Positions 31,720 to 48,793 of a stretch of DNA of 64,000 nucleotides are shown here, piece after piece; within the stretch, counting starts at the first letter, position 1; each line of letters starts with the position of its first letter. The stretch is from Oceanispirochaeta sp. GTDB taxonomy: Bacteria > Spirochaetota > Spirochaetia > DSM-2461. Where the stretch lies: NCBI GenBank assembly GCA_963663385.2, contig CAXXXD010000003.1:608001-672000 (forward strand), read 5' to 3'. Position numbers and translations under genes: made by a program. Below the pieces are notes generated by a model. That model was not told the DNA's origin and did not search any database. It was given only the letters and a program-made list of their open reading frames with translations.

Positions 31720-32203
31720 AATCCTTTGGTTTCAGAACGCAGAATTGCTCAGTCCTGAAATCCTTCCATGTTCCTTCCAGGGTCAGCACAACGGCGCAGC
31801 AGGTGGGCATAGGGATCTCTTTTGCTCCCAGAATGGAGGCCAGATAGCTGATCCCCGGGTTATGAGCTATCAGGAAAAGGGTTTCAATCCTCTCTTCCGT
31901 TCTGTCTATGGCCGCCGTGAGGTCATTCGGACTCCCCAGGTAGAGGGATGGAATCTCCTTTATAATCTCTTTTTCCTTGCCTGCCTCATTCTTGTATTCT
32001 GATAAAATCAAACAGGCCGTAGTTCGGGCCCGGTTGGCGGGACTGCTCAATATCAGGTCCGGGTTAATCCCCATTCCTTTTAATCTTCTGGCTATTGCCG
32101 GAGCATCCTTCTGTCCCCGTTTGTTTAAAGGTCTATCAAAATCAGAAAGCTCATGATGTCCCCAGTCTGATTTGGCATGTCGGATAAGAACAAGGGTTTT
32201 CAA
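31700..32203 (-). CDS. sixA: SixA-like histidine phosphatase
   Basis: RHAKS, SSPANRA, AHNP. Confidence 0.88.
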   Translation of the reverse strand: MKTLVLIRHAKSDWGHHELSDFDRPLNKRGQKDAPAIARRLKGMGINPDLILSSPANRARTTACLILSEYKNEAGKEKEIIKEIPSLYLGSPNDLTAAIDRTEERIETLFLIAHNPGISYLASILGAKEIPMPTCCAVVLTLEGTWKDFRTEQFCVLKPKDFSRGIL

Positions 32204-32212
32204 TGTTTTTCC

Positions 32213-32599
32213 TTATTTGTCATATAACTTTTTTTCCAGGTCATTGATCTTTTTATCTACCTGATTAATGCGGTATTCAATAGAGTTCAGAATCCAGAAC
32301 TGGAAATGGTTTACCTTGTGGGATGTATACATCATCCATACTATCTTGATCGATAGAAAAAGAATCCCTATTTCCAGGGACACAAAAGGGGGGAGCCAGT
32401 GAGTGACTATCTCAAGTGTGAAAAATGTAAGAACTACAACCAGAAAAAAGATATTAATAAGTCTTTCCTTGCGATGGCTCATGCTGCCGCCAAGATTTCC
32501 GAGGAGTTTCTTTACTCGTTCTTTCTCTTTTTTAAACTCCTCAACTTCTCTTGCCAGTTCCTTTTCAAGATCTGTCTGGGGTATCTGGTTCGCTTCCAA
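32213..32599 (-). CDS. Hypothetical membrane protein (coiled coil, two TMs)
   Basis: Likely TTG start at 32599 after AGGAG; HFQFWILNSIE motif. Confidence 0.7.
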   Translation of the reverse strand: MEANQIPQTDLEKELAREVEEFKKEKERVKKLLGNLGGSMSHRKERLINIFFLVVVLTFFTLEIVTHWLPPFVSLEIGILFLSIKIVWMMYTSHKVNHFQFWILNSIEYRINQVDKKINDLEKKLYDK

Positions 32600-32774
32600 A
32601 ACACTCTCCTTTAGTTCAGCATTATTCTTATTATAATATGAAAATAACATAATAAGGTTTCAGGGAAAAATCTTCAACAACTTTCGCCTTGGTTGACTCA
32701 TATCAATTATATCTATAATATGTTGCACTGATGCCCTGTATGGGTGTTAAGAAATTTTAGGAGTATGTAAAGTA

Positions 32775-33392
32775 ATGGCAAGAAATTCCAAATCAAGAGG
32801 AAAAGTTGTCCGCCGTTTAGGTGTCAATATTTACGGAAACAGTAAATATGATAGATTACTTAAAAAGAAACCTCATACCCCCGGACAGGAAAAAGGTAAA
32901 CGGGTTCGGAAAAAAGAGAGTGACTACGGTAAACAGCTGGCTGAAAAGCAGAAAATCAAATTTTCTTACGGCATGAGCGAGAAACAGTTCTATAACCTGT
33001 TTCTGAAAGCCAAGAAAATGAGCGGACTGACCGGTGATAACATGATGATCCTTCTCGAAAGAAGACTGGATAACATCGTTTACAGACTGGGAATCGCTTC
33101 TACAAGAGCTCAGGCTCGTCAGATGGTAAGTCACGGACACATTCATGTGAACGGCCGCCGTTGTAACATTCCTTCAAGAAGCCTTCGCGAGGGTGATGAA
33201 GTCTCCGTCAAAGATAATGACAGAACAAAGAAACTGATTAGGGAATGCTTGTCTTCCAACAACATGCCCGTTCCTGTTTGGCTGACTCTGTCTGAAGATA
33301 ACCTGATTGGCCGTGTGGAAAGAAGTCCTTACAGGACAGACATCGCCAGCGTTGCCAATGAACAGATGGTTGTTGAGTTCTACTCCAAATAA
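32775..33392 (+). CDS. rpsD: 30S ribosomal protein S4
   Basis: [11 protein letters not shown]...ARQMVSHGH...VVEFYSK; no Zn-binding cysteines; stand-alone location as in spirochaetes. Confidence 0.98.
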
Positions 33393-33412
33393 TCCTGACT
33401 GTTTGTTATCTG

Positions 33413-33439
33413 AAACCCGGCATCAGCCGGGTTTTTTTT
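33413..33439 (+). terminator. Rho-independent terminator of rpsD
   Basis: AAACCCGGC-ATCA-GCCGGGTTT followed by a T run. Confidence 0.85.
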
Positions 33440-33695
33440 ATAATACTTTATATATCAGCCAGTGCTCCCTGACAGGATGGATCGGTCAGTGGAGAATGGT
33501 TTTTACAGTTTCCAGAGTATCATAACTGTTAAGAACCAGAAACCGGGATGATTAACGGCCTTAAATTCTGATATACGTGGATTTCACAGGATAATAGTTA
33601 AGTTCAGGAATGGTTGCAACTCTCTAGGTGTGGATAGTCATGATTTACTCCTGAAAGAAATGCGGAGTAAGCAGCTATCTCTCTTAATATTCAAA

Positions 33696-33709
33696 TTAGT
33701 CTTGCCTAA
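33696..33709. promoter_or_regulatory. TTAG-N6-CTAA palindrome, candidate metal-repressor (DtxR/IdeR-type) box upstream of hutW
   Basis: TTAGTCTTGCCTAA; related boxes at 33745, 43051, 43070 and 45016. Confidence 0.55.
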
Positions 33710-33816
33710 AATAATTATTTTAGCAATAATATATTTGGAAAAACTTAGGTAAATCCAGATTAACTATAAATAATAAAAAAGAATCATTTCGATTCTGCTT
33801 GTAGGAGAATCAAATA

Positions 33817-35373
33817 ATGACTGTAGAAGAAATGGACTATAAAGGCAAATGGGAAAGGTCTGCTGAAGATATGATGAATAGAATGCCTTCTTTTATGAAA
33901 GAGACAGTCAAAAAAAAGGTTGAGCAGGAAGCCCTGAGAAGGGGTATGGCAAGGATTACCAGTGATTTATTAAATGATATTAAATCAAGTATGATGAGAG
34001 GGTCTCCCCGACATTCGGAGAGGGAAGAGAGGGGCATCAGTGATTTCTATGCTTTGACTGACAAAGAACCCATCTTGGCCGGATTCAAAAAGAGGAGTAA
34101 AACTCCCCATGCCGGTATGGGGAGTATGGCACCTGTAGAGGACAGTTCCCGGATCTGGGACGATTTTTCCAGGCAGATTGACAGCGAGAAAGTCAGGGCT
34201 CTCTATATCCATATCCCCTTCTGCCTGGCTCGCTGTAAGTTCTGCGGCTTCTATCACTCGAAGACGAATAAAGAAGCAATCTCCGCCTATGTGGACGAAC
34301 TCCTCCGTGAAATGGATATGGTAGCGGATTCAACTTATGCCTCATCGACCCCATTCAATGCGGTCTATTTCGGCGGAGGGACGCCCACGGATATAGCTGC
34401 GGCAGATCTCAAACGGATCATGACCCATCTCCAAAGCCGCTGGAATCTGGCCAACGACTGCGAAATAACACTGGAAGGCCGTCTACACGGCTTTGACGAC
34501 GACAAGATGGCGGTGTGCCTTGACCAGGGAGTAAACAGATTCTCCTTCGGAATACAGTCCTTCAATACCCGGATACGCCGTTCGATGGGGCGTATTGAAA
34601 AGAAGGAATTCCTTCTCAAACGCCTTGATGAGATACTGAAAACCAATGGGGCCAATGTGTCCATCGACCTTATCTACGGTTTTCCCGAACAGAGTAATGA
34701 GATCTGGCTCGACGACCTGAAGTCTGCTGTGGAAAGCGGTGTAGACTCAGCCAGTATCTATCGTCTGAAACCTATGCCCGATTCTCCCATTCAGGAACTG
34801 GTGAAGCAGGGCAGACTCGCTCCTCCTGCCTCTATGGATGTTCAGGCCGAGCAGTTCGGCCTCTCCAACGATTTTTTCCGTTCTATGAATGCCCGTCGTG
34901 CCGGTGTGACCCACTGGGCTTTCACCAACCGGGAGCGCTGTGTGTACAACTCCATATCGGCCTACGGAGGTTCCATCCTGCCCGTGGGCTGCGGCGCCGG
35001 GGGAAATTTAGGAAAGTACAGCGTGATGCAGAGGATGAGCCTTAAAGAATATTCCGGCTATATAGAAAAAGGGCTAAAGCCCCTGGGTTCTATGATTGCC
35101 GAAAAGAAACAGAACCGGGCCCTTACCATGCTCAACGGAGAGCTTCACCTGAATCTGGGGATCAACCTTATTGAACACTCCCGAAGAACGGGCGAAGTGG
35201 GATTGAATGAAACCTTCGCCCCTCTTCTCGAACAGTGGGATGAGGCGGGGATGGTTTCATACAACAGGGAAATCGGTCTTGTGCGGCTGACTGATGCGGG
35301 TGTATTTCATGCGCCTCAAATCCAGCAGAACTTACTTGATTATTATGAATGGAAGAAAGGAGGAGAGGAGTGA
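33817..35373 (+). CDS. hutW: Anaerobic haem-degrading class C radical SAM methyltransferase (HutW/ChuW) with an N-terminal PCP_red-like domain
   Basis: LYIHIPFCLARCKFC (CxxxCxxC), YFGGGTPT, LANDCEITLEGR, RFSFGIQSF, HW...RER..YN; haem-gene context. Confidence 0.85.
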   Translation: MTVEEMDYKGKWERSAEDMMNRMPSFMKETVKKKVEQEALRRGMARITSDLLNDIKSSMMRGSPRHSEREERGISDFYALTDKEPILAGFKKRSKTPHAGMGSMAPVEDSSRIWDDFSRQIDSEKVRALYIHIPFCLARCKFCGFYHSKTNKEAISAYVDELLREMDMVADSTYASSTPFNAVYFGGGTPTDIAAADLKRIMTHLQSRWNLANDCEITLEGRLHGFDDDKMAVCLDQGVNRFSFGIQSFNTRIRRSMGRIEKKEFLLKRLDEILKTNGANVSIDLIYGFPEQSNEIWLDDLKSAVESGVDSASIYRLKPMPDSPIQELVKQGRLAPPASMDVQAEQFGLSNDFFRSMNARRAGVTHWAFTNRERCVYNSISAYGGSILPVGCGAGGNLGKYSVMQRMSLKEYSGYIEKGLKPLGSMIAEKKQNRALTMLNGELHLNLGINLIEHSRRTGEVGLNETFAPLLEQWDEAGMVSYNREIGLVRLTDAGVFHAPQIQQNLLDYYEWKKGGEE

Positions 35374-35921
35374 AGGAGAAAATTAAGGAATTCCTTTACT
35401 GGGAGAACATTGACCTGATATCAGTGGGGACCTTTGCGGCCCTGATAAGAGTCTCCACCTATCTTATCTCCATTTGCGGCGGGGGGATGAATCCCCTGGC
35501 TTTCATCCTTAAGAATATCATCGGAATAAGCCTCATTGTTGTATTGTGTCATAAGGTAACCCGCTTCGGAGTCCTGACCCTGTATTCCGCCGTCACCTAT
35601 CTGTTTTCCATGATCATATCGGGCAGCTTTACCCTTTCAATGCCTGTTGTTCTGATCTTCGCCCTGTTGTCGGATACACTGATGTACTTCGGAGGACGAA
35701 AGAAACGGCTGGGGGCGGTTCTTTTTTCGGTTATCTTCTATGAAATCGGGACAAAGCTATTCGGACTGGCCTACTCGTTCCTGTTCGTCAGGGAGGATAT
35801 AAGGCTTTTAATCATGCCGACTATCGTGGTTGTTATTGGACTTATCGGATCTTTTATAGGCCTTTACAGTGGAGCCAAATTGCTGAAGGAGCTGCGTCAT
35901 GCCGGGATTATTCGGAAGTAA
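35370..35921 (+). CDS. ECF transporter substrate-specific S component (MptD/Trep_Strep-like)
   Basis: About 6 TMs, ends KELRHAGII; GTG overlaps the hutW stop codon. Confidence 0.75.
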   Translation: MKEKIKEFLYWENIDLISVGTFAALIRVSTYLISICGGGMNPLAFILKNIIGISLIVVLCHKVTRFGVLTLYSAVTYLFSMIISGSFTLSMPVVLIFALLSDTLMYFGGRKKRLGAVLFSVIFYEIGTKLFGLAYSFLFVREDIRLLIMPTIVVVIGLIGSFIGLYSGAKLLKELRHAGIIRK

Positions 35922-36747
35922 ATTTCACAGATCGGAAGACTCATTCGCCATCAGACTGAGCGGTTGGACCAAGCTGGGCATGTGTACAGCCGTATCCGTG
36001 GTAACCCTATTCCTTAAGCATGAGCCGGCCCTTATGATTCTCCTGGCAGCGGGAGCGGTTTTCGCCTTTTCTCAACTGAAGCTGCGGGTCATCCTTTTTC
36101 TTTATCTTGCCATTGGAGTCATGTCGGCCCTCTCTGTGGGCTTTGCCTCCCTGCTGGGGCGGCTTGCTTCAAATATCCACCCCGCTTTTACCGGATATAA
36201 CGCCTTCGTTATGCTCCTCCCCTTTATGCGTGTTATCGCAGTAATGCAGGTCCTGGTGGTAACGGCCCTCTCCACCAGCCCCCAGGAGATCCTTACTAAT
36301 CTTAAAAGCATCAGACTGCCCCGCTTCCTCTACCTCCCCGTTCTGGTGATGCTCCGCTTCGTTCCCTCCTTTATCAACGATATGAAGCAGATCAATGAGA
36401 GCCTGAAAGTACGGGGTCTGCGGGTCAATCTGTTGACGTTGATAACCCGTCCCGGTCTCACCATCCGCTGCAGTGTCATTCCCCTAATCTTCAGAGCCTT
36501 CAGGTCGTCAGATGAGTTGGCCGTTGCCTCCGAATTGAAAGGGGTCGGTTATTTAAAGAAGACCACCTCCTTCAGGCCCAACAGAATGGGCCGGATCGAC
36601 GTTGTTATGATCCTTGTCTCAGTCCTCCTTCTCACTTCGTCTCTTTACCTTCAGTCTCTGGCCCCTCCCGAAGAATCGATGATGCACGGAAGAATGGGAT
36701 ACAACACGGAAGTGAAGATCAGCCCCTCTCCGGGACAGGATGTTTAA
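35899..36747 (+). CDS. ECF transporter T component
   Basis: LRFVPSF...ESLKVRG and ASELKG coupling-helix motifs. Confidence 0.88.
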   Translation: MPGLFGSKFHRSEDSFAIRLSGWTKLGMCTAVSVVTLFLKHEPALMILLAAGAVFAFSQLKLRVILFLYLAIGVMSALSVGFASLLGRLASNIHPAFTGYNAFVMLLPFMRVIAVMQVLVVTALSTSPQEILTNLKSIRLPRFLYLPVLVMLRFVPSFINDMKQINESLKVRGLRVNLLTLITRPGLTIRCSVIPLIFRAFRSSDELAVASELKGVGYLKKTTSFRPNRMGRIDVVMILVSVLLLTSSLYLQSLAPPEESMMHGRMGYNTEVKISPSPGQDV

Positions 36748-36749
36748 CA

Positions 36750-38180
36750 ATGGTAAAACTACGGAATATATCCTACAGCTATCCCCATAGCGATAAGAAT
36801 GTACTCTCCGGTTTGGATTATCACATCTCTCCGGGGGATGTGGTACTTGTCACCGGGGCAAGCGGCTGCGGGAAGTCTACCTTCATGCGCTGTCTCAACG
36901 GTCTTGTTCCCCACTTCTTCCAGGGAGAGCTGCAGGGAGAGGTGTTCATCGACGGAACGGATAGCCGGGATGAGAACATACCGGAGATTGCCTGCAAGGT
37001 GGGCTCCCTCTTTCAAGACCCTGAGCAGCAGTTCTTCACCCTGGATGTGGAAAGCGAGATTGCCTTTGGCCATGAGCAAAGGGGTGTGGAAGCGGAAAGG
37101 ATCAACTCTATCATTACCCGGATGGCCGAACGTCTGGGCATCTCCCATATTTTAAAATCCTCCCTCTTTACCCTTTCCGAGGGGGAGAAACAGAAGACGG
37201 CCCTGGCCTCGACTCTCTCCATGAAGCCGAAGGCAATCCTGCTGGATGAGCCGACGGCCAATCTGGACCACGAATCGACACTGAATCTGGCCGGGTTTGT
37301 AAGGGATTTAAAGGAAGAAGGGATCACTGTCATCATCGTGGACCACCGCCTCTACTGGCTCGACGGGATTGTTGATGCGACCCTGATCATGAAAGAGGGC
37401 CGGATCGTCAGGCAGTGCGCTTTTAAAGAACTTTATAATAAGGAGCTGAGAAAAGAGTTTGGATTGAGATCACCGGATATCAAAGGACTGAACAGGCATA
37501 TCGAAGGGATTCCCTCTACGGAGGCATGGACGGGAGACGCCGTAACCGTTTCGGGTCTGACATTCGGCTACAAGGGCAAGGACCTGCTTTTCGAGAATGA
37601 TAATTTCCGCTTCCCCATGGGTAAGGTCAGTTCCATCATCGGGCATAACGGATGCGGAAAAACCACTCTGGCCCGGCTTATGACTGGTTTAAGTAAGTTA
37701 AAAACAGGGGATATCTGTGTTGCCTCCGAGAGTCTCAGTACGAAACAACTGTGTAAACGGGCGGGACTGGTTTTTCAGAACTCGGATCATCAGCTGTTTA
37801 TGAGTACCGTTCTGGAAGAGATGGAAACAGCCGGCATGAAAATTAGAAAAAGAGAACGCAGGAAGAAGGCCGTAGATCTGCTGACCCACTTCAATCTGAA
37901 GGATTCCCTCCATGCTCATCCCCAGTCCCTTTCGGGAGGGCAGAAGCAGCGTCTGGTCATCGCCTGTGCTCTGATGAAGGAGCCGGACATCCTGATTCTT
38001 GACGAGCCCACCAGCGGATTGGACGGAAAGAACATGTCTGTCATAGCCCACACCCTTGAGAAGATAGGAAAAGAGGGGAGCTGCGTCATTCTCATCACAC
38101 ACGACCTTGAGCTTATCGCAAGTGCAAGTGACTATATATTGAATCTGGGAGATGTCCGCAAGGGAACTCCCGCTAAATAA
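36750..38180 (+). CDS. ECF transporter fused dual ATPase
   Basis: Two Walker A motifs (GASGCGKS, GHNGCGKT), FQDPEQQFF, two LDEPT. Confidence 0.92.
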   Translation: MVKLRNISYSYPHSDKNVLSGLDYHISPGDVVLVTGASGCGKSTFMRCLNGLVPHFFQGELQGEVFIDGTDSRDENIPEIACKVGSLFQDPEQQFFTLDVESEIAFGHEQRGVEAERINSIITRMAERLGISHILKSSLFTLSEGEKQKTALASTLSMKPKAILLDEPTANLDHESTLNLAGFVRDLKEEGITVIIVDHRLYWLDGIVDATLIMKEGRIVRQCAFKELYNKELRKEFGLRSPDIKGLNRHIEGIPSTEAWTGDAVTVSGLTFGYKGKDLLFENDNFRFPMGKVSSIIGHNGCGKTTLARLMTGLSKLKTGDICVASESLSTKQLCKRAGLVFQNSDHQLFMSTVLEEMETAGMKIRKRERRKKAVDLLTHFNLKDSLHAHPQSLSGGQKQRLVIACALMKEPDILILDEPTSGLDGKNMSVIAHTLEKIGKEGSCVILITHDLELIASASDYILNLGDVRKGTPAK

Positions 38181-38191
38181 GGATGTTAAAA

Positions 38192-39208
38192 ATGAAGATT
38201 GCCGTTATCTACTCCTCTAAAACCGGAAATACAAAGAAAGTGGCCCGGGCTATAAAAGATGCCCTGCCCGAGACCACAGATCTGATCGAAGCCAAAGATT
38301 TCAAGGGGGGCCATGATTACGATTTCATCTTTATGGGCTACTGGGTTGATAAGGGTACTGCCGATCGGGAAGCTCAGAAGGTGATGTCTCAGATCACCAA
38401 TAAGGAGGTGGCTATCTTCGCCACTCTGGGAGCCTATCCTGAGTCTGATCATGCCAGACAGAGCCTTGTGGGTGCCGCCTGCTGCTTCGGAAAGAACACG
38501 AAGGTTGTGGCCAGCTATATCTGTCAGGGAGCGATCGATCCGAAGATCATTGAAATGATGCGGAAAAACTCAGTCATACCCCATGGAAACTCGGAAGAGA
38601 GTGAAAAGCGCTGGGCCAACGGGGCAAGCCGCCCCGATGAGAACGATCTGAAAAAGGCAGCTGAGTTCGCCGTTAAAGCGATGGAAATGAGGGAGATTTT
38701 TGCTCCCTATAAAGAGAAGATAAAGACTGCCATGAAAGAGGCACTCGCTCAGGATCCGGGAATGCCGGCCATGGCGGCAATGAAATTTGGTGTGAGTGAG
38801 AAGGAAGTTTATGAGAACCTGCCGGAAGGAACGGTGAAATTTGTTGATATATCCAATTTTAAGGAAATCTGGGAAGAGATGGCGAGCTGGGAGAAGGTGC
38901 AATTCTTAAGCGTAAACTCAGGGCTGGTTATGGAAGTCCCGGGCAGACTTTCCCGGGGAAAGGAGGGACACGGCATGTTCAATCTGTCCGACAGGGATGC
39001 CCCCGTTCACGGTCATGTGATAGTCGACAATCTGGATTCCCTGGCCTTCGTATCCATACCTTTTATGGGTCGGGAGAGCCATAACGTGACCTTCTTTGCC
39101 AAGGACGGCAGCGTCGCTTTCGCTCTTTATCTGGGACGCAATGAAAAACGGGAAATCATTCCCGAAGTTAGAGAGTCCTTTCTGAAGCTTAAAGAATCTT
39201 TCTCATAG
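38192..39208 (+). CDS. Fusion of HmuF-like flavodoxin (N) and HutX/ChuX haem-binding domain (C)
   Basis: YSSKTGNT FMN loop, GYWVDKG, FATLGAYP, cap His; C-terminal GMFNL...HGH...PFMG...LYLGR ChuX motifs. Start 38192 fits the AAGGA SD. Confidence 0.82.
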   Translation: MKIAVIYSSKTGNTKKVARAIKDALPETTDLIEAKDFKGGHDYDFIFMGYWVDKGTADREAQKVMSQITNKEVAIFATLGAYPESDHARQSLVGAACCFGKNTKVVASYICQGAIDPKIIEMMRKNSVIPHGNSEESEKRWANGASRPDENDLKKAAEFAVKAMEMREIFAPYKEKIKTAMKEALAQDPGMPAMAAMKFGVSEKEVYENLPEGTVKFVDISNFKEIWEEMASWEKVQFLSVNSGLVMEVPGRLSRGKEGHGMFNLSDRDAPVHGHVIVDNLDSLAFVSIPFMGRESHNVTFFAKDGSVAFALYLGRNEKREIIPEVRESFLKLKESFS

Positions 39209-39394
39209 CACTCTTGTGCCCCCCTGTCCCGAAGAGGACGGGCCGCACCAGAAGTTAAATTGTGTATCTGTCTTTATAAAATTTCTTCTCATTCTCAGAA
39301 AATTATCCCGCAGTGCAACAAGTCGTAGTTTACAGGAGTCGGAAAACGAGGAGCTGCTGCTAAAAAAGCAGATACGACTTTAACTCTTTTTTTA

Positions 39395-40282
39395 TCAGCT
39401 CCTTCCTGTCTGGGTCATATTGTCCGGCACAACAATAATAAAATCGGCGATCTGCTCTCTCTCTTCGGTTGTCATCATATCCCATTCACTTTCCATTAAA
39501 GTAGTGATTGATTTGATGTTTATCCCGGGTTGTATTTCATTGATCCACCACATAATCCCCTGGCGATTGTTGCTGTGGTAGGAACCTGAAAAATGTAAAA
39601 GCAGGTTTCCAGGTTGATAGTTTTTCAGGGAGAAATAGGCCATTGTCGCATCCTTGGCAGCCTGAGCGGCCTGGAGATTTTTAATCTTAGGATTTGCATG
39701 GCCTCCCATAATAGAAGCCATATCGGCATAACACTTCACCTCATGATCAAAACGGGTTTTGAAATCCGGGCTGATCATGGTTAAAGCCTCAGGACTCAAA
39801 TGATCAAGAACTTCAATACCTCCTTTATTGATCATGGAGGCGTATCTGCGTGGTATATTGGTGGCAATGAAGCGGAGGCCCTTTTCCCTGGCGAAATCAA
39901 GAAGCGGTTTATAATCCGTTTTATAGTTTCCCCATAGCTGAGTTATTTCAGGAAGCATTTTATCTTCCTCATAGAATCCTTCTAAATATTCATTCAGCAC
40001 CAACTGGTTTCCGCTTTCAAACATTTCTGCTCCAAAAAACAGATCATCTCTTCTGATTTCGTATAGACTGTGACTCAACTCCTGCTGAAGCCAGTGGGAT
40101 ATCGGGTTGGTGTGGTACTCTCCAAAGAAGATCATATCCGATCGGGAAATATTGCTGATCATTTCTTCATATTTGATAGGCTTTCCTTCATTGGAATAGA
40201 GACGCCAGGCCGGCTTATCCTGGGCTATCGCCGATCCTGATATGCTGATCATCAGCAGTGATATAAGTTTTATGTTATTCAT
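39395..40282 (-). CDS. ChaN/PhuW-family haem-associated protein (SPase I-type signal)
   Basis: FFGEYH, EMFE, DYKPL, ATNIPR, DATMA and GSYHS motifs. Confidence 0.85.
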   Translation of the reverse strand: MNNIKLISLLMISISGSAIAQDKPAWRLYSNEGKPIKYEEMISNISRSDMIFFGEYHTNPISHWLQQELSHSLYEIRRDDLFFGAEMFESGNQLVLNEYLEGFYEEDKMLPEITQLWGNYKTDYKPLLDFAREKGLRFIATNIPRRYASMINKGGIEVLDHLSPEALTMISPDFKTRFDHEVKCYADMASIMGGHANPKIKNLQAAQAAKDATMAYFSLKNYQPGNLLLHFSGSYHSNNRQGIMWWINEIQPGINIKSITTLMESEWDMMTTEEREQIADFIIVVPDNMTQTGRS

Positions 40283-40447
40283 ATGTAACTCCTCAATGAA
40301 TGTCTTGATGTTTCCTCAGTTATTGGAGTGGGGCAGTAAAAAAAATAGAGGGCCATTACATAATTTCTTATGCATTAACCCTATGCATGCCTAGAGTATA
40401 GAGAGAAGGATCACCGGTAGATAATGACCGGCAATCCCATAGGAAAT

Positions 40448-40891
40448 CTACATTTCTACCTGAGAAAATTCTACTATGTTACCCATAATAGTAAACTCCA
40501 TAGTAACGCCATCCTCAAGGATGGTGAATACTTTGTCGGATGCTGATTCAGCAGTCATTCCCATATCTGGACAGTAGGCTTTGAAGGAAAAAATAATCTT
40601 ACCATCTTCTTCTGTAGTGGTAACATCCGTCGTATAGATATATGCCATTTCTCCCATCCCCCCGGACGACACATAGGAATCTTCCTTCAGTTCATAGTTG
40701 AGTGTGCTTACCTCACCCTGAATTGTTGCATTACCTGTCCATTGAACACCCATCATGTCGTCATATTCGGAAATCGTTTTAGGAAAATCATCATCACCGG
40801 AAGAGGAAGAACCATCATCGCAGGAAACGAACACCAGGGATGCAAAAACTACCAACACTACCAGAAAACTGCTGAAAAAACCTTTCTTCAT
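40448..40891 (-). CDS. Acidic Met-rich lipoprotein of unknown family
   Basis: Lipobox FVSC, Ser/Asp tether, beta-strand-rich; directly downstream of the TonB-dependent receptor. Confidence 0.75.
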   Translation of the reverse strand: MKKGFFSSFLVVLVVFASLVFVSCDDGSSSSGDDDFPKTISEYDDMMGVQWTGNATIQGEVSTLNYELKEDSYVSSGGMGEMAYIYTTDVTTTEEDGKIIFSFKAYCPDMGMTAESASDKVFTILEDGVTMEFTIMGNIVEFSQVEM

Positions 40892-40911
40892 TTTTTCACT
40901 CCTTAAATCTA

Positions 40912-42903
40912 TTAATATTCTATGCGGCCGCCGATCGTTCCGATGACGCCGTCATAATAACCAAAGTAATCTTCCTGATTCATACCTTCATAACTACTGC
41001 CCTCTCCTTCTAAGAAGTGATAGTTATTCAGGAGGTTTTCGCCGCGGATATATACGGAAAAATGCTCTCCAATACCTTTTTCAGTTCCCAGAACCAAGAG
41101 CAATTTATCGGGAGATTTAACATCTCCTGAACTCGTCAGCTTCATGGGAGCGTCCCAGGTCGTCGAGCCGAAGACTTTTAATGCTATCTTTGAGAACCTG
41201 TAGCTGGAGCTTAAACACACTGTATGAGGGACTCGGCCAGTCAAGTCTGTGTATTCACCATCCTCATAACTCTTGGCGGCTGTATAGGCGTATGAGAGGG
41301 AACCGGAATAATCGTTATGGTTGTAGTGAATGGCAGTATCTCCACCATAGGTCACGGCCTTTCCGATATTTTCGTAGCTGGTGTCCACATAGCCCCCGCT
41401 GCCGTCGGAATTGGAAGGGGTTTCGATAAGATCGATTATATAGTTGTAATAGGCTGCGGCTGAAAAGCTGAATCGCTCCAGGAATTCCTGTTCCAGCGAA
41501 ATATTGAAACCATGGGATTTCTCCGGTTTCAAATCGGGATTCCCATAGATATTAAAAACCGCAGACCCGCCGCCGGTATGGTGAAAAAACCAGTACTTTT
41601 GCTTTAAAGTGGGAATCTTATACCCCATCCCATAGGAGACACGAATTGTCGTATCTTCCGTTGGATCCGCCTTCAGGCTCAGCTTGGGCGTAAACTGGGA
41701 TAGCCCCGATTCTTCATCTCCGATGGGAGGAGTAAAATCAAAACGGAAACCGGGGGTCAGGAGAAAGAGATCCCGGGAGCCTATATTCCAGTCGTCCTGT
41801 GCGAACAGGCTGAGATGAAGCGCTTTTTTCCACTCCTCTTTTCCGAAGGACACCTCGTCTTGTAGAGCTTCGAGTTCAATGTGGGTCCCCGCAAGCAGGG
41901 TATGGGAAATATGAGGAATCATTTCAATACGATATTCCCCCTCGAAACCGGCATACTTCCTCTCGGACGATGACGATCCGCTTTCCAGATTCAGGCCGAA
42001 ATAGTTACCCGAAAGAAAGCCGCTGCCGGATAACCGGTCGGTGATCTCATGGTCTCCTCTGAAACCGCCGTAGATGCGGGGATTATCATATGTAGATTCT
42101 GAGGAGGGAATTCCTGCCGATGAAAGGGAGTTGTATTTACTGATGTACTGGTCATAGTTTGCGAAAATGCCCCACGTTCCCTGATCATTAAAGAAATCGG
42201 CTGTCAGCCCCAGTGAACTCAAGAAAGAAGAGGGAAGCTCGTAATACTCCTCCTCTTTCCGTCCTCGATTATAGGACTTTTTCTTTCCGTTATCATAATC
42301 CAGGGACGCTGTGGTACCTATGCTGTATCCTTCCGTTGTATAACTGAGCGCACCTGTTGTGTATGTTCTGAGATTCGTGGAGATCTCAGAGTTTGCATTA
42401 GCGCTGAATTCAGGCGTTGAGGGCTTTTCCTTTTTTGTAATGATATTAATGACACCACCGATCGCATCAGAACCGTAAAGAGCGGAGCTTGAGCCTCTGA
42501 TGATTTCGATTCTCTCTATATTGGAAACGGGGATCTGTCCTGTAGGGAGTGAACCGGCTATATCTCCAACCAGTTTCACACCGTCAACCAGGAATCTGAT
42601 GTATTCTCCTTCAAATCCCTGCATCATGATGGAACTCGACATCCGTCCGCCCACAGAAATACCTGGGATCTGCTCCAGGGCCTCGGAGAGATTCGTTGCC
42701 CCAGACTCCCGGATTTCTTCTGCTGTCACAACTTCGACTTTTTCACTTGCCTCATCTGATGTTTCAGCAAACTTGCTCCCAGTTATAACAATTACGGCCT
42801 CTCCGTCCGGAGCGGTCCTATCCTGAGCATAAAGAAAAAAAGAACCAGAAAAGAGTATTGTTGCGATAATCATGCCGTTCTTGATCGTTTGAGCTGTCCT
42901 CAT
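40912..42903 (-). CDS. TonB-dependent receptor, haem/HmuR-like
   Basis: TonB box VIVITGS, plug IERIEIIRGSSSALYGSDAIGGVINIITK, FRAP/NPNL-like YKIP...HH...NPDLKPE, C-terminal aromatic residue. Confidence 0.9.
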   Translation of the reverse strand: MRTAQTIKNGMIIATILFSGSFFLYAQDRTAPDGEAVIVITGSKFAETSDEASEKVEVVTAEEIRESGATNLSEALEQIPGISVGGRMSSSIMMQGFEGEYIRFLVDGVKLVGDIAGSLPTGQIPVSNIERIEIIRGSSSALYGSDAIGGVINIITKKEKPSTPEFSANANSEISTNLRTYTTGALSYTTEGYSIGTTASLDYDNGKKKSYNRGRKEEEYYELPSSFLSSLGLTADFFNDQGTWGIFANYDQYISKYNSLSSAGIPSSESTYDNPRIYGGFRGDHEITDRLSGSGFLSGNYFGLNLESGSSSSERKYAGFEGEYRIEMIPHISHTLLAGTHIELEALQDEVSFGKEEWKKALHLSLFAQDDWNIGSRDLFLLTPGFRFDFTPPIGDEESGLSQFTPKLSLKADPTEDTTIRVSYGMGYKIPTLKQKYWFFHHTGGGSAVFNIYGNPDLKPEKSHGFNISLEQEFLERFSFSAAAYYNYIIDLIETPSNSDGSGGYVDTSYENIGKAVTYGGDTAIHYNHNDYSGSLSYAYTAAKSYEDGEYTDLTGRVPHTVCLSSSYRFSKIALKVFGSTTWDAPMKLTSSGDVKSPDKLLLVLGTEKGIGEHFSVYIRGENLLNNYHFLEGEGSSYEGMNQEDYFGYYDGVIGTIGGRIEY

Positions 42904-43050
42904 TTTTTTCCTCAATTATTAGTCCAATATATAGAATTATGTATATATTCATTCCGAGGTTTAAACACTGCCAGGGATGGTTGCCTGTCAATAAGCCCGG
43001 TTTGGACTCAATGAGAAAGGGTTCCAATAATTCCCTTGCTGAATGAAAAA

Positions 43051-43130
43051 TTAGTAGTGCACAATAAAAGTATGCATGGCTAACATAATTAATATAAGAT
43101 AACATATTCTGATTGGGGAATATGTGTCAA
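43051..43130 (-). promoter_or_regulatory. Receptor promoter (TTGACA-18-TATGTT) with two downstream TTAG-N6 boxes
   Basis: -35 at 43125-43130; boxes TTAGTAGTGCACAA (43051) and GTATGCATGGCTAA (43070). Confidence 0.5.
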
Positions 43131-43237
43131 GAGAATTCAGTGTTTTTTGATTACCAGGTGGAATAATTTATGATTATGAATTGAATTCAGCTTGAAAATC
43201 GGCCTTGTAAAATCCCAGTGACAAAGAGTGGGGAGGA

Positions 43238-43951
43238 TCAATCAAGGCTGTATTCCAGGTAAAAAGTCAGTTCGAATTCGCTTTTCCCATCGGGTAATCC
43301 GGGAAAAGGAGCCGCTCTTTCAACAGTTTTCACGGCAGCTTCGTTTAAAAGAGAGTAGCCCGAATGCTCCATTATGAGACAGGAAGTCAACTCTCCGTCG
43401 GCTGAAATGACCAGGTGAAGTTTAATAAGACCTTCCTGACCTTTCCTGCGGGCACTCGAGGGGTAGATCTTTTTTCGTGCGATACGTGTGAGAACCTTGG
43501 TTTGATAGCGGACAATGGCGGGGCTTAACTCTTTTACAATGGGGCGGGGCGGTTGTGTATCTATAGGGGACTGAATGTTATTCAGCTGTGTAAACTCCGG
43601 CCCGGGAAGTGGCTCCGGCCCGGGAAGTGGCTCCGGCCCGGGAAGTGGCTCCGGCCCGGGAAGTGGCTCCGGCCCGGGAAGTGGCTCCGGCCCGGGAAGT
43701 GGCTCCGGCCCGGAAAGTGGCTCCGGCCCGGAAAGTGGCTCCGGCCCGGAAAGTGGCTCCGGTCCGGAAAGTGGCTCCGGCCCGGAAAGTGGCTCCGGCT
43801 CAGATACAGTCTGAGAGAAGGACATGGCCTTCAGAGCAACTTCTATCACGGTATCCTGGGCCATTTCCTCTGTCTTTATCGGGGGAGGGAGAAGGAACAG
43901 TGTCATAAAAAGGGAAGCGGAGAACAGGACGCTAAGAATCCATCTGATCAT
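43238..43951 (-). CDS. tonB: Energy transducer TonB
   Basis: N-terminal TM, Pro-rich repeat, YPSSARRKGQEG...SGYSLLNEAA...PFP C-domain. Confidence 0.9.
   Translation of the reverse strand: MIRWILSVLFSASLFMTLFLLPPPIKTEEMAQDTVIEVALKAMSFSQTVSEPEPLSGPEPLSGPEPLSGPEPLSGPEPLSGPEPLPGPEPLPGPEPLPGPEPLPGPEPLPGPEPLPGPEFTQLNNIQSPIDTQPPRPIVKELSPAIVRYQTKVLTRIARKKIYPSSARRKGQEGLIKLHLVISADGELTSCLIMEHSGYSLLNEAAVKTVERAAPFPGLPDGKSEFELTFYLEYSLD
43595..43798. repeat. 18-bp tandem repeat, 11 copies, encoding (PEPL[S/P]G)n in TonB
   Basis: CTCCGGCCCGGGAAGTGG x6, then CTCCGGCCCGGAAAGTGG-type x5. Confidence 0.97.
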
Positions 43952-44339
43952 GACGAATCCCTATTTTCTCTATGCCGGATTTTTTCACCTCATCAAGGAT
44001 CTGAACCACCGTCTCAAAGACAATGTCTCGGTCACAGGCGAGAACCAGAGCCACCTCCGGATTTTTCTTCTTAAGTTTGTAAAGACTGGATTCCAGTTCT
44101 TCCCTTACTATGATCTGCCCGTCCAGGCTGATGACTTCCTCCCTGGATACAGTGAGGGTAACGGCTTTGTTCTCCTCCTTTTCCTCTCCTGAGGAACGGG
44201 GCAAATCGAGGGGAAGGGAATTCTGTCTGAACTGGGTGGAGATCATGAAAAAGATCAGTAATATGAAAATGACATCGATAAGAGGAGTCACATTCATTCC
44301 AGCTTGTTTCTTTTTCTTCCCTTGACCCATGTTAAGCAT
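43932..44339 (-). CDS. exbD: Biopolymer transporter ExbD
   Basis: NVTPLIDVIFILLIFFM. Confidence 0.93.
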   Translation of the reverse strand: MLNMGQGKKKKQAGMNVTPLIDVIFILLIFFMISTQFRQNSLPLDLPRSSGEEKEENKAVTLTVSREEVISLDGQIIVREELESSLYKLKKKNPEVALVLACDRDIVFETVVQILDEVKKSGIEKIGIRHDQMDS

Positions 44340-44919
44340 GGTTTTTCCTTTTTACCGGATAATCAAGTTCATCCTCATCTTCACAAGCGGGAACAGCCAT
44401 TCCCATATGGAGTAACCTTACCTCCTGCTTCCTGCGAAAGTAATGGACGAAGAAAAGGGAAGGAAGGGCTACGATCAATCCGAATGCCGTTGTAAGCATG
44501 GCTTCCCAGATTCCCCCTGAAAAATTCTGGATATCCAGGGAGGTCGCTCCTGCCATCCCTTGAAAACTCTTTATCAGACCGAAAACAGTCCCCAGAAGAC
44601 CCAGAGACGGAGATGCGGCGCTAATGAATTCCAGCAGCCACAATCCCCTTTCCATTTCATGATTCAGCAGGGCGCCGAATCTTTCCAATTCTTCATTCTT
44701 GTGATCTTGAGGAAAGTCTTTCAGTTCCAGATAGCGGTTGAACAGCCTCTGTATCTGGGATCGACATGGCGTATGGCTTCCCGCAAGGGAGTCGAGTTTA
44801 CGGTAGGTTATCAGAAAATAGAGACTCCTCTCTATTATCAGGGTCATACTTAGAAAGAGCATGCCTGTGAGGATCCATCCTATCAATCCTCCCAGGCGGA
44901 TGTATTCTATTAATTCCAT
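44332..44919 (-). CDS. exbB: ExbB/TolQ/MotA proton channel
   Basis: SPSLGLLGTVFGLI...GIWEAMLTTAFGL. Confidence 0.92.
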   Translation of the reverse strand: MELIEYIRLGGLIGWILTGMLFLSMTLIIERSLYFLITYRKLDSLAGSHTPCRSQIQRLFNRYLELKDFPQDHKNEELERFGALLNHEMERGLWLLEFISAASPSLGLLGTVFGLIKSFQGMAGATSLDIQNFSGGIWEAMLTTAFGLIVALPSLFFVHYFRRKQEVRLLHMGMAVPACEDEDELDYPVKRKNHA

Positions 44920-45015
44920 TTCATCTGTCCCCCTGCCAGCAGGCCCATCGAGCGGCGCTATCTACCGGTTTTTCAAGTGATCAAGCATAGTCGATTTCTA
45001 TACATCCTATAAATA

Positions 45016-45067
45016 GTATAGTCTACTAAAGTTATGTTAAACTATTTTTTTATTCTCATTTTGTCAA
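45016..45067 (-). promoter_or_regulatory. exbB promoter (TTGACA-17-TAGTTT) with a downstream TTAGTAGACTATAC box
   Basis: -35 at 45062-45067; -10 at 45039-45044; box at 45016-45029. Confidence 0.55.
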
Positions 45068-45620
45068 TAGAGCTTTACCATTGAGGCCAAAACCAGACTC
45101 AGCAAGGTTTTCATCATAATCTCCAATTCCTCCATCTTCCTGGTTATGAAGCCGACAATCCGTGAAGGTTCCCTGTATGATTGGCCTCTGACGAAACAGA
45201 TGAAGGCAATACATACTTGGCAGCTCAAGCCGACTCCCTTCGAACAGGGGACAGGATAACCCGGCTGTCCGGCTTTCGGTGTCAGGGCCAAATCGGCCGA
45301 TTACAAGAGAAGCGTTGCAGAAAACCTGGCCTCTCTTCTCTTGAAGTGCCTGATTTTTGGAGAAGAGATCTCCGGGATTCGCGGGCTAATGGTTCTGGAG
45401 GATCCGGTTGGTTCGGTTTTTATGGTCACCGAGCTGGAACCGGAACTTGATCTATAGAGGATCAGCTGTCCTATAGCTGTTCCTGCTGCCTCCGATGAGG
45501 ACTGTGCCACTGAGAATGTGGACCTGAAGTTCTTAATAAAGGTTGTCCCAGGTTACAGCAGAAGTGCCTCCTCATCAGGGTTAATTACAACGATAAAGGG
45601 AGGCCTATTGCTATTTTAAA

Positions 45621-48600
45621 TCACTCCGCCAGAAAAACGGTCTGCTGCCTATCCACAACAGAATACTCTGTCTCCTGAGCCGCTTCCATGAGGAGTTCCC
45701 TGTCCGACATAAACTCCCGGGGCTGTTTCCGGACCGGCATCATGGCCAGAACCACAGGCAGAACCGCCAGGGTCAGAAAGGTTCCGAAAATCAGTCCCCA
45801 GGCAATGGAGATTCCTACGGGAACCATCATCTGTCCTCCCACGCTCTTTTGGAATATAAGGGGCGCCAGACCGATGGAGGTTGTCAGTGTCGTCATCAGA
45901 ATGGGTCTGAACCTCTGAAGGGCCGCTTCTCTGGCTGCCAGTTTTTTGGGAATCCCAGAACGGATCTTTTTATTGAAACAGTCGATCAGAACCACCGAGT
46001 CATTAACAATGATACCGCCCAGGGCAACGCTTCCCAGAAAGGAGATGAAGGAAATGGGTTTTCCCATAATCATATGGCCGTATACAGCACCCAGAAAGCC
46101 CAGGGGGATCAGGGTTAATACAAGCAGAGCCTGACCCCATGATTTCATCTGAAACAGCAGCAGAGTAAACATGATCAGCAGGGCCAGGGCCATGCTGAAG
46201 ACCATGGACTTAATCATTTTATTGACCCATTCCGCCTGGCCGCCCTGGGAAAGGGTAACCCCTTCAACTCTGGAAAGGATATCGGGCAGGATCCTGTCGT
46301 TCACCTCTTTCATAACAATATTTATCTCTGTTACTCCCGTATCCACTCCTGCCATTACACGCAGGGAACGGTAGCCGTTCTCCCGGCGGATACTCCTCTG
46401 GCTTCTCTGCAGGGAGAAGTCTGCTACCTCCCGGAAAGGAACCAGACTGCCGGCGGGCGTGTGGATCATCATATCTTCCACACGGCTGAGGGAGTCCCTT
46501 TCTTCCTGGGAGAACCGGATTATAACAGGTATGGTATTTCTTCCGTCCTGGATGTTCATAACCTCGCTGCCGTAGAAACCCATACGCACCTGGTTGGCAA
46601 CCGATGCGGTTGTCAGCCCGAGGGCCATCCCTTTTTCGTTAAGCCGGATTATAAACTCTTTCTGTCCCAGAGGCGTATCATCCCGGATATCCTTGACACC
46701 GTTTATCCTGGCCAGCTCTTCCTTAAAGAGGTCGGCCGCTTCCTTCAGCTGTGTTTTATCCTTTCCCAGAAAGCGGATCGAAACAGGATCCCCCCCGAAC
46801 ATGGAATCGTTCCCTATAAACATTGACTCTACTTCAGGGTATTCGGGAACGGCCCTGGCTAACTCGAGGGAAAATTCGTTTACCGTAAAATCCCGAATCT
46901 CGTTATCCTGAAGGATCAGGTAGATATACATCTGGTTGCTGTTTCCCCAGGAGAGGTAGTCCACTATGGCATTATCAAAATCGGGGCTTTTCAGGGCGTA
47001 CTCCCTGCCGAATTCCATAGAGAACCGTTCCAGATCCTCCCGGGTTTCATTTATAACATCCGCGGAAGTTCCGGAAGGGAACTGGACCTGGGCATACACA
47101 TAGGGGGCTTCAATATCCGGGAAAAAGGCGGCTTTTATATGATTTCCCATAGCCGCTCCTGCGGAGATCATGATCGAACAGGCCAGAAGGGTCAGAATCA
47201 CCGCTTTATGATTCAGGGCAAAGTCCAGGAAAGGCTGATAGATTCTGTAGATCAGGAAATCCTGAGACTGCTGAAGCTTCTGTCTGAGGGGACGCGGCCT
47301 CCGTGCTTCGGCTGTAAGGGCTTTAGAGTGAGCCAGATGAACCGGCAGAAGTATCATGGCTTCCACCAGTGAGAAAGCCAGGCTGATTACCACAACCGTA
47401 CCAATCTGCGCGGTATACTTTCCCATATCTCCGTAGATAAAGAAATAGGGAGCAAAGGCAACCATTGTGGTGGCAATGGAGATCAGTACAGGAGACATGA
47501 CTTCCAGAGTTCCGTCTATGGCTGCCTGTTTCCGGGTTTTCCCCAGACGGTGCCACTGATCATAGATACTTTCTCCGATAACGATTCCGTCATCCACCAG
47601 TATACCGATGATCATAATCATTCCGAACAGGGACATCTCATTGATGGTAATTTTCATCATCCATTCCAGAAAAATCAGTCCCATAAAAGAGATGGGGATT
47701 CCCAGTGCTACCCAGAAAGAGATACGTGTATTCAGAAACAGCCCCAGAATCAGTATTACAAGGAGCAGCCCCCCGAGGCCGCTTTTGGTAAGGGTTCCCA
47801 GCCGTTCGTGCAGATCATCCACATCCCGGATATAGGTCTGGAAGGTAAAGGCATCCCCGTATTTTACCCGGTATTCCTCCAGTTTGGCATCCACGATTTT
47901 CGATATGGATATTACATCCTCCGTATTGCTGTACATTATCTGAAGGCCTATAGCTTCCTGGCCGTTTGCCCTGGTGTAGATGGCATTTTCCGCCCGGCCC
48001 ATCCTGATGGTGCTGATGTCCTTAAGGCGGATACTCCGGCCGTTCGGTGTGGTCATAATGACAATCTCTTCCAGTTCGGGGATGGTTGTCTTTTTTTCGT
48101 AGGAGCGTATCTGTATCTGTTCATCAGCGGTAAGAACGGATCCGGCAGACATATTGAGACTGGCAGACCGGATGGCGCCGTCAATATCATCCAGAGTCAG
48201 GCCGTACCGTTCCAGGGTGGAGGGGAGGGGTTCTATTATTATCTGTTCCCCCGGGAAGCCCCAGGTGTTAATCTGGGTTACCTGCCCTGTTCTGGACAGG
48301 TCCTCCCTGAATTCGGTTGCCACATCTTCCAGAAGCCGGAGATTTTCCTGACCGTAGATAAACAGAAGCATAACCCGGTTCCACTCGGTTTCCCTGTATA
48401 TAACGGGTTTATCCGCTTCCGAGGGGTATTCCGGTGTTGTTTCCACAGTGGAACGGACGTTGTCAAGGAGTTTGTCCATGGGATACCAGGGGGATGTTTC
48501 CAAACCGAACCAGGCGCCTCCGTCCCGGGCTGTGGATGTTACCTGGACAATGCCTTCCAACCCGCGCAGTCTTTCTTCAAGGGGAAGGACCAGCCCTTCC

Positions 48601-48782: not shown

Positions 48783-48793
48783 GAGTATTCCTT

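Follow-up and report, generated by a model that had tools for sequence, protein, structure and literature searches.

An energy-coupling factor transporter beside HutW in a predicted two-part locus for anaerobic iron acquisition from haem in Oceanispirochaeta

How could a bacterium with two membranes take iron from haem without oxygen, and by which route would the haem cross its inner membrane? The question is raised by an eleven-gene locus in a 64,000-nucleotide stretch of the genome of Oceanispirochaeta sp. (GenBank assembly GCA_963663385.2, contig CAXXXD010000003.1, positions 608,001 to 672,000), the whole of which is called the window here and supplies the numbering used throughout. With a probability of roughly 70%, we read it as a two-part locus that would take iron from haem without oxygen, in which an energy-coupling factor (ECF) transporter at the inner membrane would feed the radical S-adenosylmethionine (SAM) enzyme HutW. 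A preliminary description, made from the sequence alone, had seen a haem locus in these genes and, beyond that, a singular hybrid with a “Gram-positive-style” inner-membrane step. An open reading frame (ORF) map and two family scans recovered all eleven genes in place and bore out every gene call, and the haem-locus reading is the best one available; the singular hybrid did not survive (see below).

The genes form two sets on opposite strands (Table 1). On the plus strand, hutW, ecfS, ecfT, a fused ecfA-A' and a flavodoxin::HutX fusion follow one another with neighbours overlapping or 2 nucleotides apart; on the minus strand, the overlapping exbB-exbD-tonB (44919 down to 43238) are followed by the receptor, a small lipoprotein and chaN, with gaps of 320 nucleotides between tonB and the receptor, 20 between the receptor and the lipoprotein and 165 between the lipoprotein and chaN. 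Because genes inside each set overlap or lie 2–20 nucleotides apart, each set can be read as one operon. A hairpin resembling a terminator follows rpsD and sets the hutW genes apart from upstream transcription; after it comes an AT-rich leader of 424 nucleotides ahead of hutW.

Table 1. Coordinates of the genes and other features of the haem locus and its borders.
Feature	Position	Strand	Family match or character
Hairpin after rpsD	33412-33435		terminator-like
Palindrome	33706-33723		perfect, 18 bp, CTAAAATAATTATTTTAG
hutW	33817-35373	+	TIGR04107, 427.1 bits (cut-off 400); Radical_SAM and PF08369
PCP_red domain of HutW	33850-33984	+	PF08369, residues 12-56
ecfS	35349-35921	+	Pfam Trep_Strep PF09605, 30.6 bits (cut-off 28.7)
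ecfT	35899-36747	+	CbiQ PF02361, 52.4 bits; transmembrane coupling (T) component
ecfA-A'	36750-38180	+	two ABC_tran domains; TIGR04520 (ECF_ATPase_1), 328.4 bits (cut-off 315)
fld::hutX	38183-39208	+	Flavodoxin_3, 162 bits, residues 7-163; ChuX_HutX, residues 199-334
chaN	39395-40282	-	PF04187 (Cofac_haem_bdg), 172 bits (cut-off 27.7)
147-residue lipoprotein	40448-40891	-	signal peptide ending ...FVSC; directly downstream of receptor; no family
TonB-dependent receptor	40912-42915	-	Plug and beta-barrel; HmuR-like
tonB	43238-43951	-	TonB_C, 58 bits
Tandem repeat in tonB	43595-43799	-	18-nucleotide unit, 11.4 copies, 98% matches
exbD	43932-44339	-	PF02472, 104 bits
exbB	44332-44919	-	PF01618, 88 bits
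Stretch between exbB and pump gene	44920-45620		700 nucleotides, short ORFs
Efflux pump	45621-49993	-	AcrB-type permease and adaptor

The enzyme that heads the plus-strand set is predicted to be a radical-SAM methyltransferase of the ChuW/HutW family for anaerobic opening of the haem ring. As had been proposed, it is of the ChuW/HutW type and not HemN or HemW: its 427 bits exceed the equivalog cut-off of 400, and the sister models all remain below their own cut-offs (STM4012, 153 bits; HemW, 145.7 bits against 205; HemN, 135 bits against 325). It is the sole copy above the TIGR04107 cut-off in the genome. We scanned 75 HutW-like proteins, namely that of the window, three from spirochaete relatives and 71 from the ECF-type loci described below (the truncated L056, L067 and L079 being excluded); all 75 match TIGR04107 at E≤1e-50, only one also matches HemW, and the CxxxCxxC (Cys136/140/143) and GGGTP (G186-P190) motifs are invariant in their alignment. 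It would take a HemW-like haem chaperone or a biosynthetic HemN-like enzyme to turn the locus into one for haem insertion and not degradation; the family is close to HemN and HemW, and the solved relative by sequence is HemN (1olt, E 1.3e-27), but the scores above and the linkage of hutW to HutX and an HmuF-type flavodoxin make this reading very improbable. The amino-terminal PCP_red domain, otherwise the C-terminal domain of protochlorophyllide reductase subunit B, occurs on nine of the 75 scanned proteins; this recurrent minority architecture may provide HutW with an extra tetrapyrrole-handling or docking domain.

The three genes after hutW encode an ECF transporter of the dedicated type, as judged from their sequences and, for S, from a structural model. 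The fused A-A' protein has two each of the Walker A, signature and Walker B motifs. A cobalt transporter of the CbiMNQO kind was considered and rejected: the T component reaches 33 bits on the CbiQ equivalog TIGR02454 against a cut-off of 111.8, and the locus has no CbiM or CbiN. The substrate-binding S component, the database form of which begins 7 codons further in at GTG 35370, has relatives in just 20 clusters at E≤1e-5 among 5.8 billion proteins, with an invariant GGGMNP motif and a C-terminal KELRHAG; judged by its sequence, it is a distinct subfamily at the edge of Trep_Strep/MptD. Its AlphaFold model (91 sequences; mean predicted local distance difference test score, pLDDT, 82.9) has six long membrane helices, and its top PDB match by Foldseek is an ECF S component (5edl, E 6e-3, template-modelling (TM) score 0.60), followed by TmRibU (TM 0.56–0.61), ThiT (TM 0.52) and PanT. 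In the model helices 1 and 2 are joined by a loop that holds GGGMNP, helices 5 and 6 by one that holds R141-E142, and KELRHAG ends helix 6; presumably, as in the usual S topology, these loops face outward near the binding pocket and the KELRHAG tail is cytoplasmic.

What ties this transporter to HutW is the recurrence of the pair. A profile of S relatives retrieved 80 loci from contigs representing one genome per species, and genes were counted within 10 kb by tblastn with the window proteins; since the loci were chosen through S, the counts measure how often S has hutW, and not how often hutW has S. Near S we found ecfT in 79 of the 80, ecfAA' in 75, hutW in 74, the HmuF-type flavodoxin in 56, a TonB-dependent receptor in 47, exbB in 30, exbD in 29, hutX in 23 and tonB in 7. 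Contig ends truncate many of the loci; in the 52 where S is flanked by no less than 4 kb on its upstream side and 6.5 kb on its downstream side, hutW is present in 51, the flavodoxin in 45, the receptor in 36 and hutX in 20. In 79 of the 80 loci ecfT comes after S. Two layouts dominate, hutW-S-T-AA'(-fld) and hutW-receptor-S-T-AA'-hutX-fld(-exbB-exbD), and in 28 loci the receptor sits between hutW and S in one operon. Recurrence of these gene families around S relatives in 74 of 80 genomes is an association beyond chance, and within this S-seeded sample the S subfamily behaves as a near-obligate partner of HutW.

The hosts of the 80 listed loci are Lentisphaerota, Kiritimatiellota, Verrucomicrobiota, Thermodesulfobacteriota, Planctomycetota and a few others, with no spirochaete among them, and the best S match comes from Lentisphaerota (60% identity). 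The notion of a Gram-positive-style import step thus has to be given up, as the S subfamily is confined to double-membraned anaerobes in all 80 listed loci; nor is the combination a one-off, since the same operon, with hutW and often the receptor, exbBD, the flavodoxin and hutX, is widespread elsewhere. The window locus is unusual only in its host, in the order of its fld::hutX fusion and in the adjacent chaN. A scan of metagenome contigs for close kin of the whole locus returned only flavodoxin-level relatives (36–51% identity).

The last gene of the plus-strand set joins two carriers in one protein. Its HutX part passes TIGR04108 (153 bits against a cut-off of 110, over residues 185–336) and, among solved structures, matches 5exv (E 2.4e-31), deposited as 'Hemin-degrading HemS.ChuX domain protein', and ChuX (2ovi, E 1.4e-18). 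The flavodoxin part matches Fusobacterium nucleatum FldH (8g64, E 6e-14) over residues 4–128. According to PMC10404700, HmuF and FldH carry a helical cap with the haem ligand His134, bind haem as well as FMN (flavin mononucleotide), hand haem over to HmuW and reduce anaerobilin, and thereby stand in for ChuX/ChuS and ChuY. The alignment with FldH ends at residue 128/130, short of this ligand; the fusion has a histidine at its own position 134. Beyond the window protein, 27 clusters carry both domains in either order: the Fld-HutX order, the rarer one, is found in six clusters including the window's own (one labelled uncultured Desulfuromonas by its source record), and the HutX-Fld order in 22, the source records of two of which name Mucispirillum. 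In unfused loci hutX immediately precedes fld in 22 cases and follows it in none. Since the fusion exists in both orders, the HutX and flavodoxin carriers are likely to act together.

The minus-strand set would supply the outer-membrane step. The likelier start of the receptor is ATG 42903, downstream of GAGGA. His442 (YKIPT...H442...NPDL) is invariant across three aligned receptors, between the YK(I/M/V)PT and NP(D/N)L boxes; a conserved histidine between FRAP-like and NPNL-like boxes is a haem-receptor motif. Two spirochaete relatives, one of the same genus (G001) and one of the same family (G014), carry the operon hmuF-hmuU-hmuV-hmuW-hmuT-exbB-exbD-tonB-receptor, followed by a 140-residue ORF in G001 and by an HmuY gene in G014. 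The window receptor is 48–50% identical to that of the G001 operon and 37–39% to that of G014, and its exbB is 53% identical to the G001 exbB; the best receptor match in the 80 ECF-type loci reaches just 29% identity (169 bits). Against a B12 substrate stands an Rfam search of 32000–46500, which gave no cobalamin or other riboswitch at E≤1 and only two small-RNA models far under their gathering scores. Within tonB, the tandem repeat encodes a proline-rich PEPL(S/P)G spacer, the copy number of which could differ between strains.

Two further minus-strand products are candidates for a periplasmic step. ChaN has an N-terminal signal peptide and no lipobox cysteine, and is a candidate secreted periplasmic haem binder. 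Its gene is single-copy in the genome and appears foreign to the spirochaete group, as none of 40 relatives has a version above the cut-off. ChaN homologues of 29–37% identity occur in loci of the form receptor-ChaN-ABC (ATP-binding cassette) ATPase-exbB-exbD-flavodoxin-hutW on eight of 15 metagenome contigs found via the flavodoxin, several of the eight being near-identical and hence not independent. These metagenome loci (L120–L133), which have no ECF S component, represent a third layout. The 147-residue lipoprotein has a single close relative among 1.84 billion representatives and is 23% identical to the 140-residue ORF after the G001 receptor. It has no family match to HmuY (PF14064), with the G014 member of which it shares only its gene position. 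Residues 42–147 are modelled as an all-beta domain of nine strands (pLDDT near 88). No PDB entry matches it at E≤0.001, and a structure-based name was therefore rejected; the weak matches to LolA (1.3e-2) and a Bacteroides lipocalin-like protein (1.6e-2), with Lipocalin_4 as a lead only, indicate a fold that is possibly lipocalin-like. The same beta domain resembles a unit repeated 5–13 times in giant proteins of 1211–5520 residues (P0072, P0073, P0074).

Taken together, ExbB-ExbD-TonB would power the HmuR-like receptor to bring haem into the periplasm, where the beta-rich lipoprotein and the secreted ChaN would probably hold it or pass it on. The dedicated ECF transporter (S, T and fused A-A') would import the haem without a periplasmic binding protein; flavodoxin::HutX would take it up and present it to HutW, which would open the ring by radical-SAM methyl transfer, yielding iron and anaerobilin. 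The FMN domain of the fusion would then reduce the anaerobilin, as HmuF does in Fusobacterium, and this would explain why neither ChuY nor HutZ is needed. What the analysis shows directly is which genes and domains are present, how they are arranged in operons and that this S subfamily is linked to hutW in several phyla; what the receptor and S carry, which way transport runs, each hand-off and the regulation by iron are inferred. The absence from the window of HutZ, ChuY and a haem-type binding protein, as first described, is upheld by family scans: at E≤1e-3 among the locus genes, and at E≤1e-8 among window ORFs of at least 100 residues outside it, nothing of the Peripla_BP_2, PNPOx (HutZ) or ChuY type was matched. 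As a candidate for another haem importer elsewhere in the genome, the top HmuT-like match (31% identity) was rejected, as it sits in a CbiK-binding protein-ABC cluster of another kind. That separate cluster (L111 8173–12076; G000:C4, about 1027–1031 kb) encodes a chelatase resembling CbiK together with a Peripla_BP_2 binding protein and an ABC protein of fused type, and might be another uptake system, for a tetrapyrrole or a metal.

Several observations weigh against haem import through this locus. On the side of the transporter, S has no match among solved structures by sequence even at E≤10, which bears on its ligand, and it is marginal on Pfam Trep_Strep and fails the NCBIfam MptD/Trep_Strep model (TIGR02185, 21.2 bits against 76.45); the counts around S, moreover, run in one direction only. 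On the side of the receptor, the best model, TonB-hemin (TIGR01785), gives 176.9 bits, under its cut-off of 316.85, and the B12 receptor model still gives 151 bits. ChaN and the lipoprotein occur in none of the 80 ECF-type loci and are hence not core parts, and the interdependence of the ChaN-bearing contigs reduces what they add. Regulation offers no help either: Fur boxes in four upstream regions have at best 7–8 mismatches of 19, and sequence elsewhere in the window matches at least as well. About 95 nucleotides upstream of hutW, the palindrome listed in Table 1 overlaps promoter-like hexamers and is a candidate operator only. A partial look-alike lies upstream of the receptor. As the mark of a regulon or as a shared operator it was rejected, the palindrome occurring just once in the genome and its near-copies, at no more than 3 mismatches, numbering 7 as against 28 in the reversed control.

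Two other readings draw on these observations. The transporter might be tied to HutW chemistry and yet carry something other than haem, be it another tetrapyrrole or corrinoid, or anaerobilin and its reduced forms. The marginal family membership of S, its want of a solved relative by sequence and the B12 score of the receptor would suit such a reading, and gene linkage would look identical for a transporter of the product; but ECF systems characterised so far are known as importers, a receptor between hutW and S fits an uptake path, no cobalamin riboswitch was detected, and the ABC-type tblastn matches in the 80 loci, where no FecCD/Peripla_BP_2 scan was made, are those of the ECF ATPase alone. 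We regard it as unlikely. Somewhat less likely still, the two convergent sets are mere neighbours, the receptor, TonB system, lipoprotein and ChaN serving a siderophore or other metal complex and haem entering otherwise. Their opposite strands and separate promoters, the receptor score under the haem subfamily cut-off and the lack of a shared operator are what this would lead one to expect; it is countered by the closest receptor examined, which sits in a complete hmu operon, by the company that receptors (47 of the 80 loci) and exbBD (about 30) keep with hutW-ECF, and by ChaN, a member of a haem-binding family found with hutW elsewhere. Haem import by the ECF transporter for degradation by HutW thus remains our preferred account.

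Where might the plus-strand module have come from? In a sample of 400 other Spirochaetota genomes, none was found to have the S subfamily, and HutW-like genes occur in 14, at 207–255 bits and never above the cut-off, leaving the genome of the window (G000) as the only one of 401 to pass; among the 40 relatives, HutW exceeds it only in G008, of the same genus. The set is rare in spirochaetes, as had been supposed, with S in 0 of 400 and ChaN above its cut-off in 0 of 40. The window HutW is 63% identical to a Lentisphaeria protein as against 29% to the G001 HutW, and it pairs with the Lentisphaeria sequence at a Shimodaira–Hasegawa-like approximate likelihood ratio (SH-aLRT) support of 100 in a quick tree. 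From this pairing, the absence of S from the 400 genomes and the restriction of above-cut-off HutW to G000 of the 401, we infer that the ECF/HutW module was laterally acquired, with its nearest relative in Lentisphaeria, and now lies beside a spirochaete-type receptor set that is related to the latter half of the canonical hmu operon of its relatives; the earlier half of such an operon is probably what the module replaced. Two points tell against this. The tree comes from a quick search under LG+G4, has no support values other than SH-aLRT and was rooted on sequences that we selected; and the base composition of the two gene sets, 0.50 and 0.46 against 0.48 for the window, shows nothing odd, so that the case for lateral origin is drawn from phylogeny and distribution only.

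The G008 cluster, TetR-S-T-AA'-hutX-fld-PNPOx-...-hutW, is 35–43% identical to the window, and its HutW is nested inside Desulfovibrio at SH-aLRT 100; on our reading, the ECF-type module would have entered this one spirochaete genus laterally on two separate occasions. In G008 the ECF/hutW cluster and Tad/Flp pilus genes lie in a tract of at least 56 kb (G008:C2:172000–227999; L019, L020, L138) at 64–65% G+C as against 49–54% elsewhere, which is probably a large laterally acquired island; the G008 chromosome also carries FlaA. A wider proposal, on which we hold the odds to be even, is that the S subfamily marks the principal route of haem across the inner membrane in many anaerobes with two membranes (Desulfovibrio and other Thermodesulfobacteriota, Kiritimatiellota, Lentisphaerota, Opitutales and some Planctomycetota), an ECF system taking receptor-delivered haem without a periplasmic binding protein and feeding the HutX/flavodoxin/HutW complex directly, possibly via the KELRHAG tail, and that spirochaetes acquired the module at least twice, from different donors.

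The genomic setting is that of an ordinary chromosome, the flanking genes being rpsD, a histidine kinase, a resistance-nodulation-division (RND) pump, chemotaxis genes and the trp operon. The genome of 5.3 Mb in 4 contigs encodes three FlaA flagellar sheath proteins, a family present in none of 14 control genomes, which marks its owner as a spirochaete. The stretch between exbB and the pump gene holds only short ORFs (69–89 residues) with no family and has no Rfam match; the adjoining RND efflux pump is ordinary-looking.

A few bacteria with a single membrane are known to take up haem through an ECF transporter, and to our knowledge work on ChuW, HutW and HmuW as anaerobic haem degraders has dealt only with binding-protein-dependent importers. 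Among best-ranked literature matches, the ECF and HutW themes are joined only in an enterococcal review that merely cites the paper on the Staphylococcus lugdunensis transporter LhaSTA; 'ECF' text matches in two HutW papers were discarded, as they refer to EcFldA and EcFpr and not to an ECF transporter. No paper linking an ECF transporter with ChuW, HutW or HmuW was found in the literature searched, which includes few subscription journals and not the supplements of PMC10404700. The operon type is widespread and, as far as this search goes, undescribed, as is the use of an ECF transporter for haem import in double-membraned bacteria. If our reading is correct, a large group of gut and sediment anaerobes moves haem across the inner membrane by an undescribed route that is tied strictly to HutW, a large hydrophobic cofactor can be handled by ECF transporters placed behind a TonB-dependent receptor, and HutX and the HmuF-type flavodoxin, fused as they are in both orders, form one unit.

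Set against known systems, the locus shares features with several and coincides with none. Like hutWXZ of Vibrio cholerae and chuW-chuX-chuY of E. coli O157:H7, it has a HutW above the same equivalog cut-off and a HutX domain matching 5exv and ChuX 2ovi; unlike them, it has no HutZ or ChuY, its HutX lies inside a flavodoxin fusion, no binding-protein-dependent ABC import is present, and HutW carries the extra N-terminal PCP_red domain. ChaN resembles that of Campylobacter jejuni, which, following the Pfam description, is the founding and haem-binding member of PF04187, in its strong family match (172 bits), secretion signal and place beside a TonB-dependent receptor, but differs in having no lipobox cysteine and in its partners, ECF and HutW. 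The HmuY-HmuR pair of Porphyromonas gingivalis likewise couples the gene of a lipoprotein, hemophore-like in that case, directly to that of the haem receptor, and in G014 a true HmuY-family gene stands in this position; the 147-residue protein, however, has no HmuY match, is much smaller and has a predicted fold weakly like those of lipocalins and LolA. With LhaSTA of S. lugdunensis (PMC7299338), the locus shares a dedicated S-T-A ECF transporter within a haem-acquisition locus. LhaSTA works in a single-membraned host and is fed by Isd surface proteins (PMC7299338), whereas the host here is two-membraned, a TonB-dependent receptor precedes the transporter on the uptake path and the operon of the transporter also encodes a radical-SAM degrader.

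The closest counterpart is the hmuTRUVWF operon of F. nucleatum, which includes HmuW and HmuF and has similar clusters in Treponema denticola and T. pedis (PMC10404700). In both loci an HmuF-type flavodoxin stands with a radical-SAM enzyme for anaerobic haem degradation and a TonB-dependent receptor, no ChuY or HutZ being needed, and the relatives G001 and G014 are exactly of the F. nucleatum type. The window locus departs from that type in having an ECF transporter in place of HmuT, a binding protein, and HmuUV, an ABC importer of type II, and in having its flavodoxin fused to HutX. Its HutW belongs to the ChuW/HutW lineage (427 bits) and not to the spirochaetal HmuW-like lineage (207–255 bits), and next to the canonical operons of its relatives it would provide a clear case of module replacement by lateral transfer inside one spirochaete genus.

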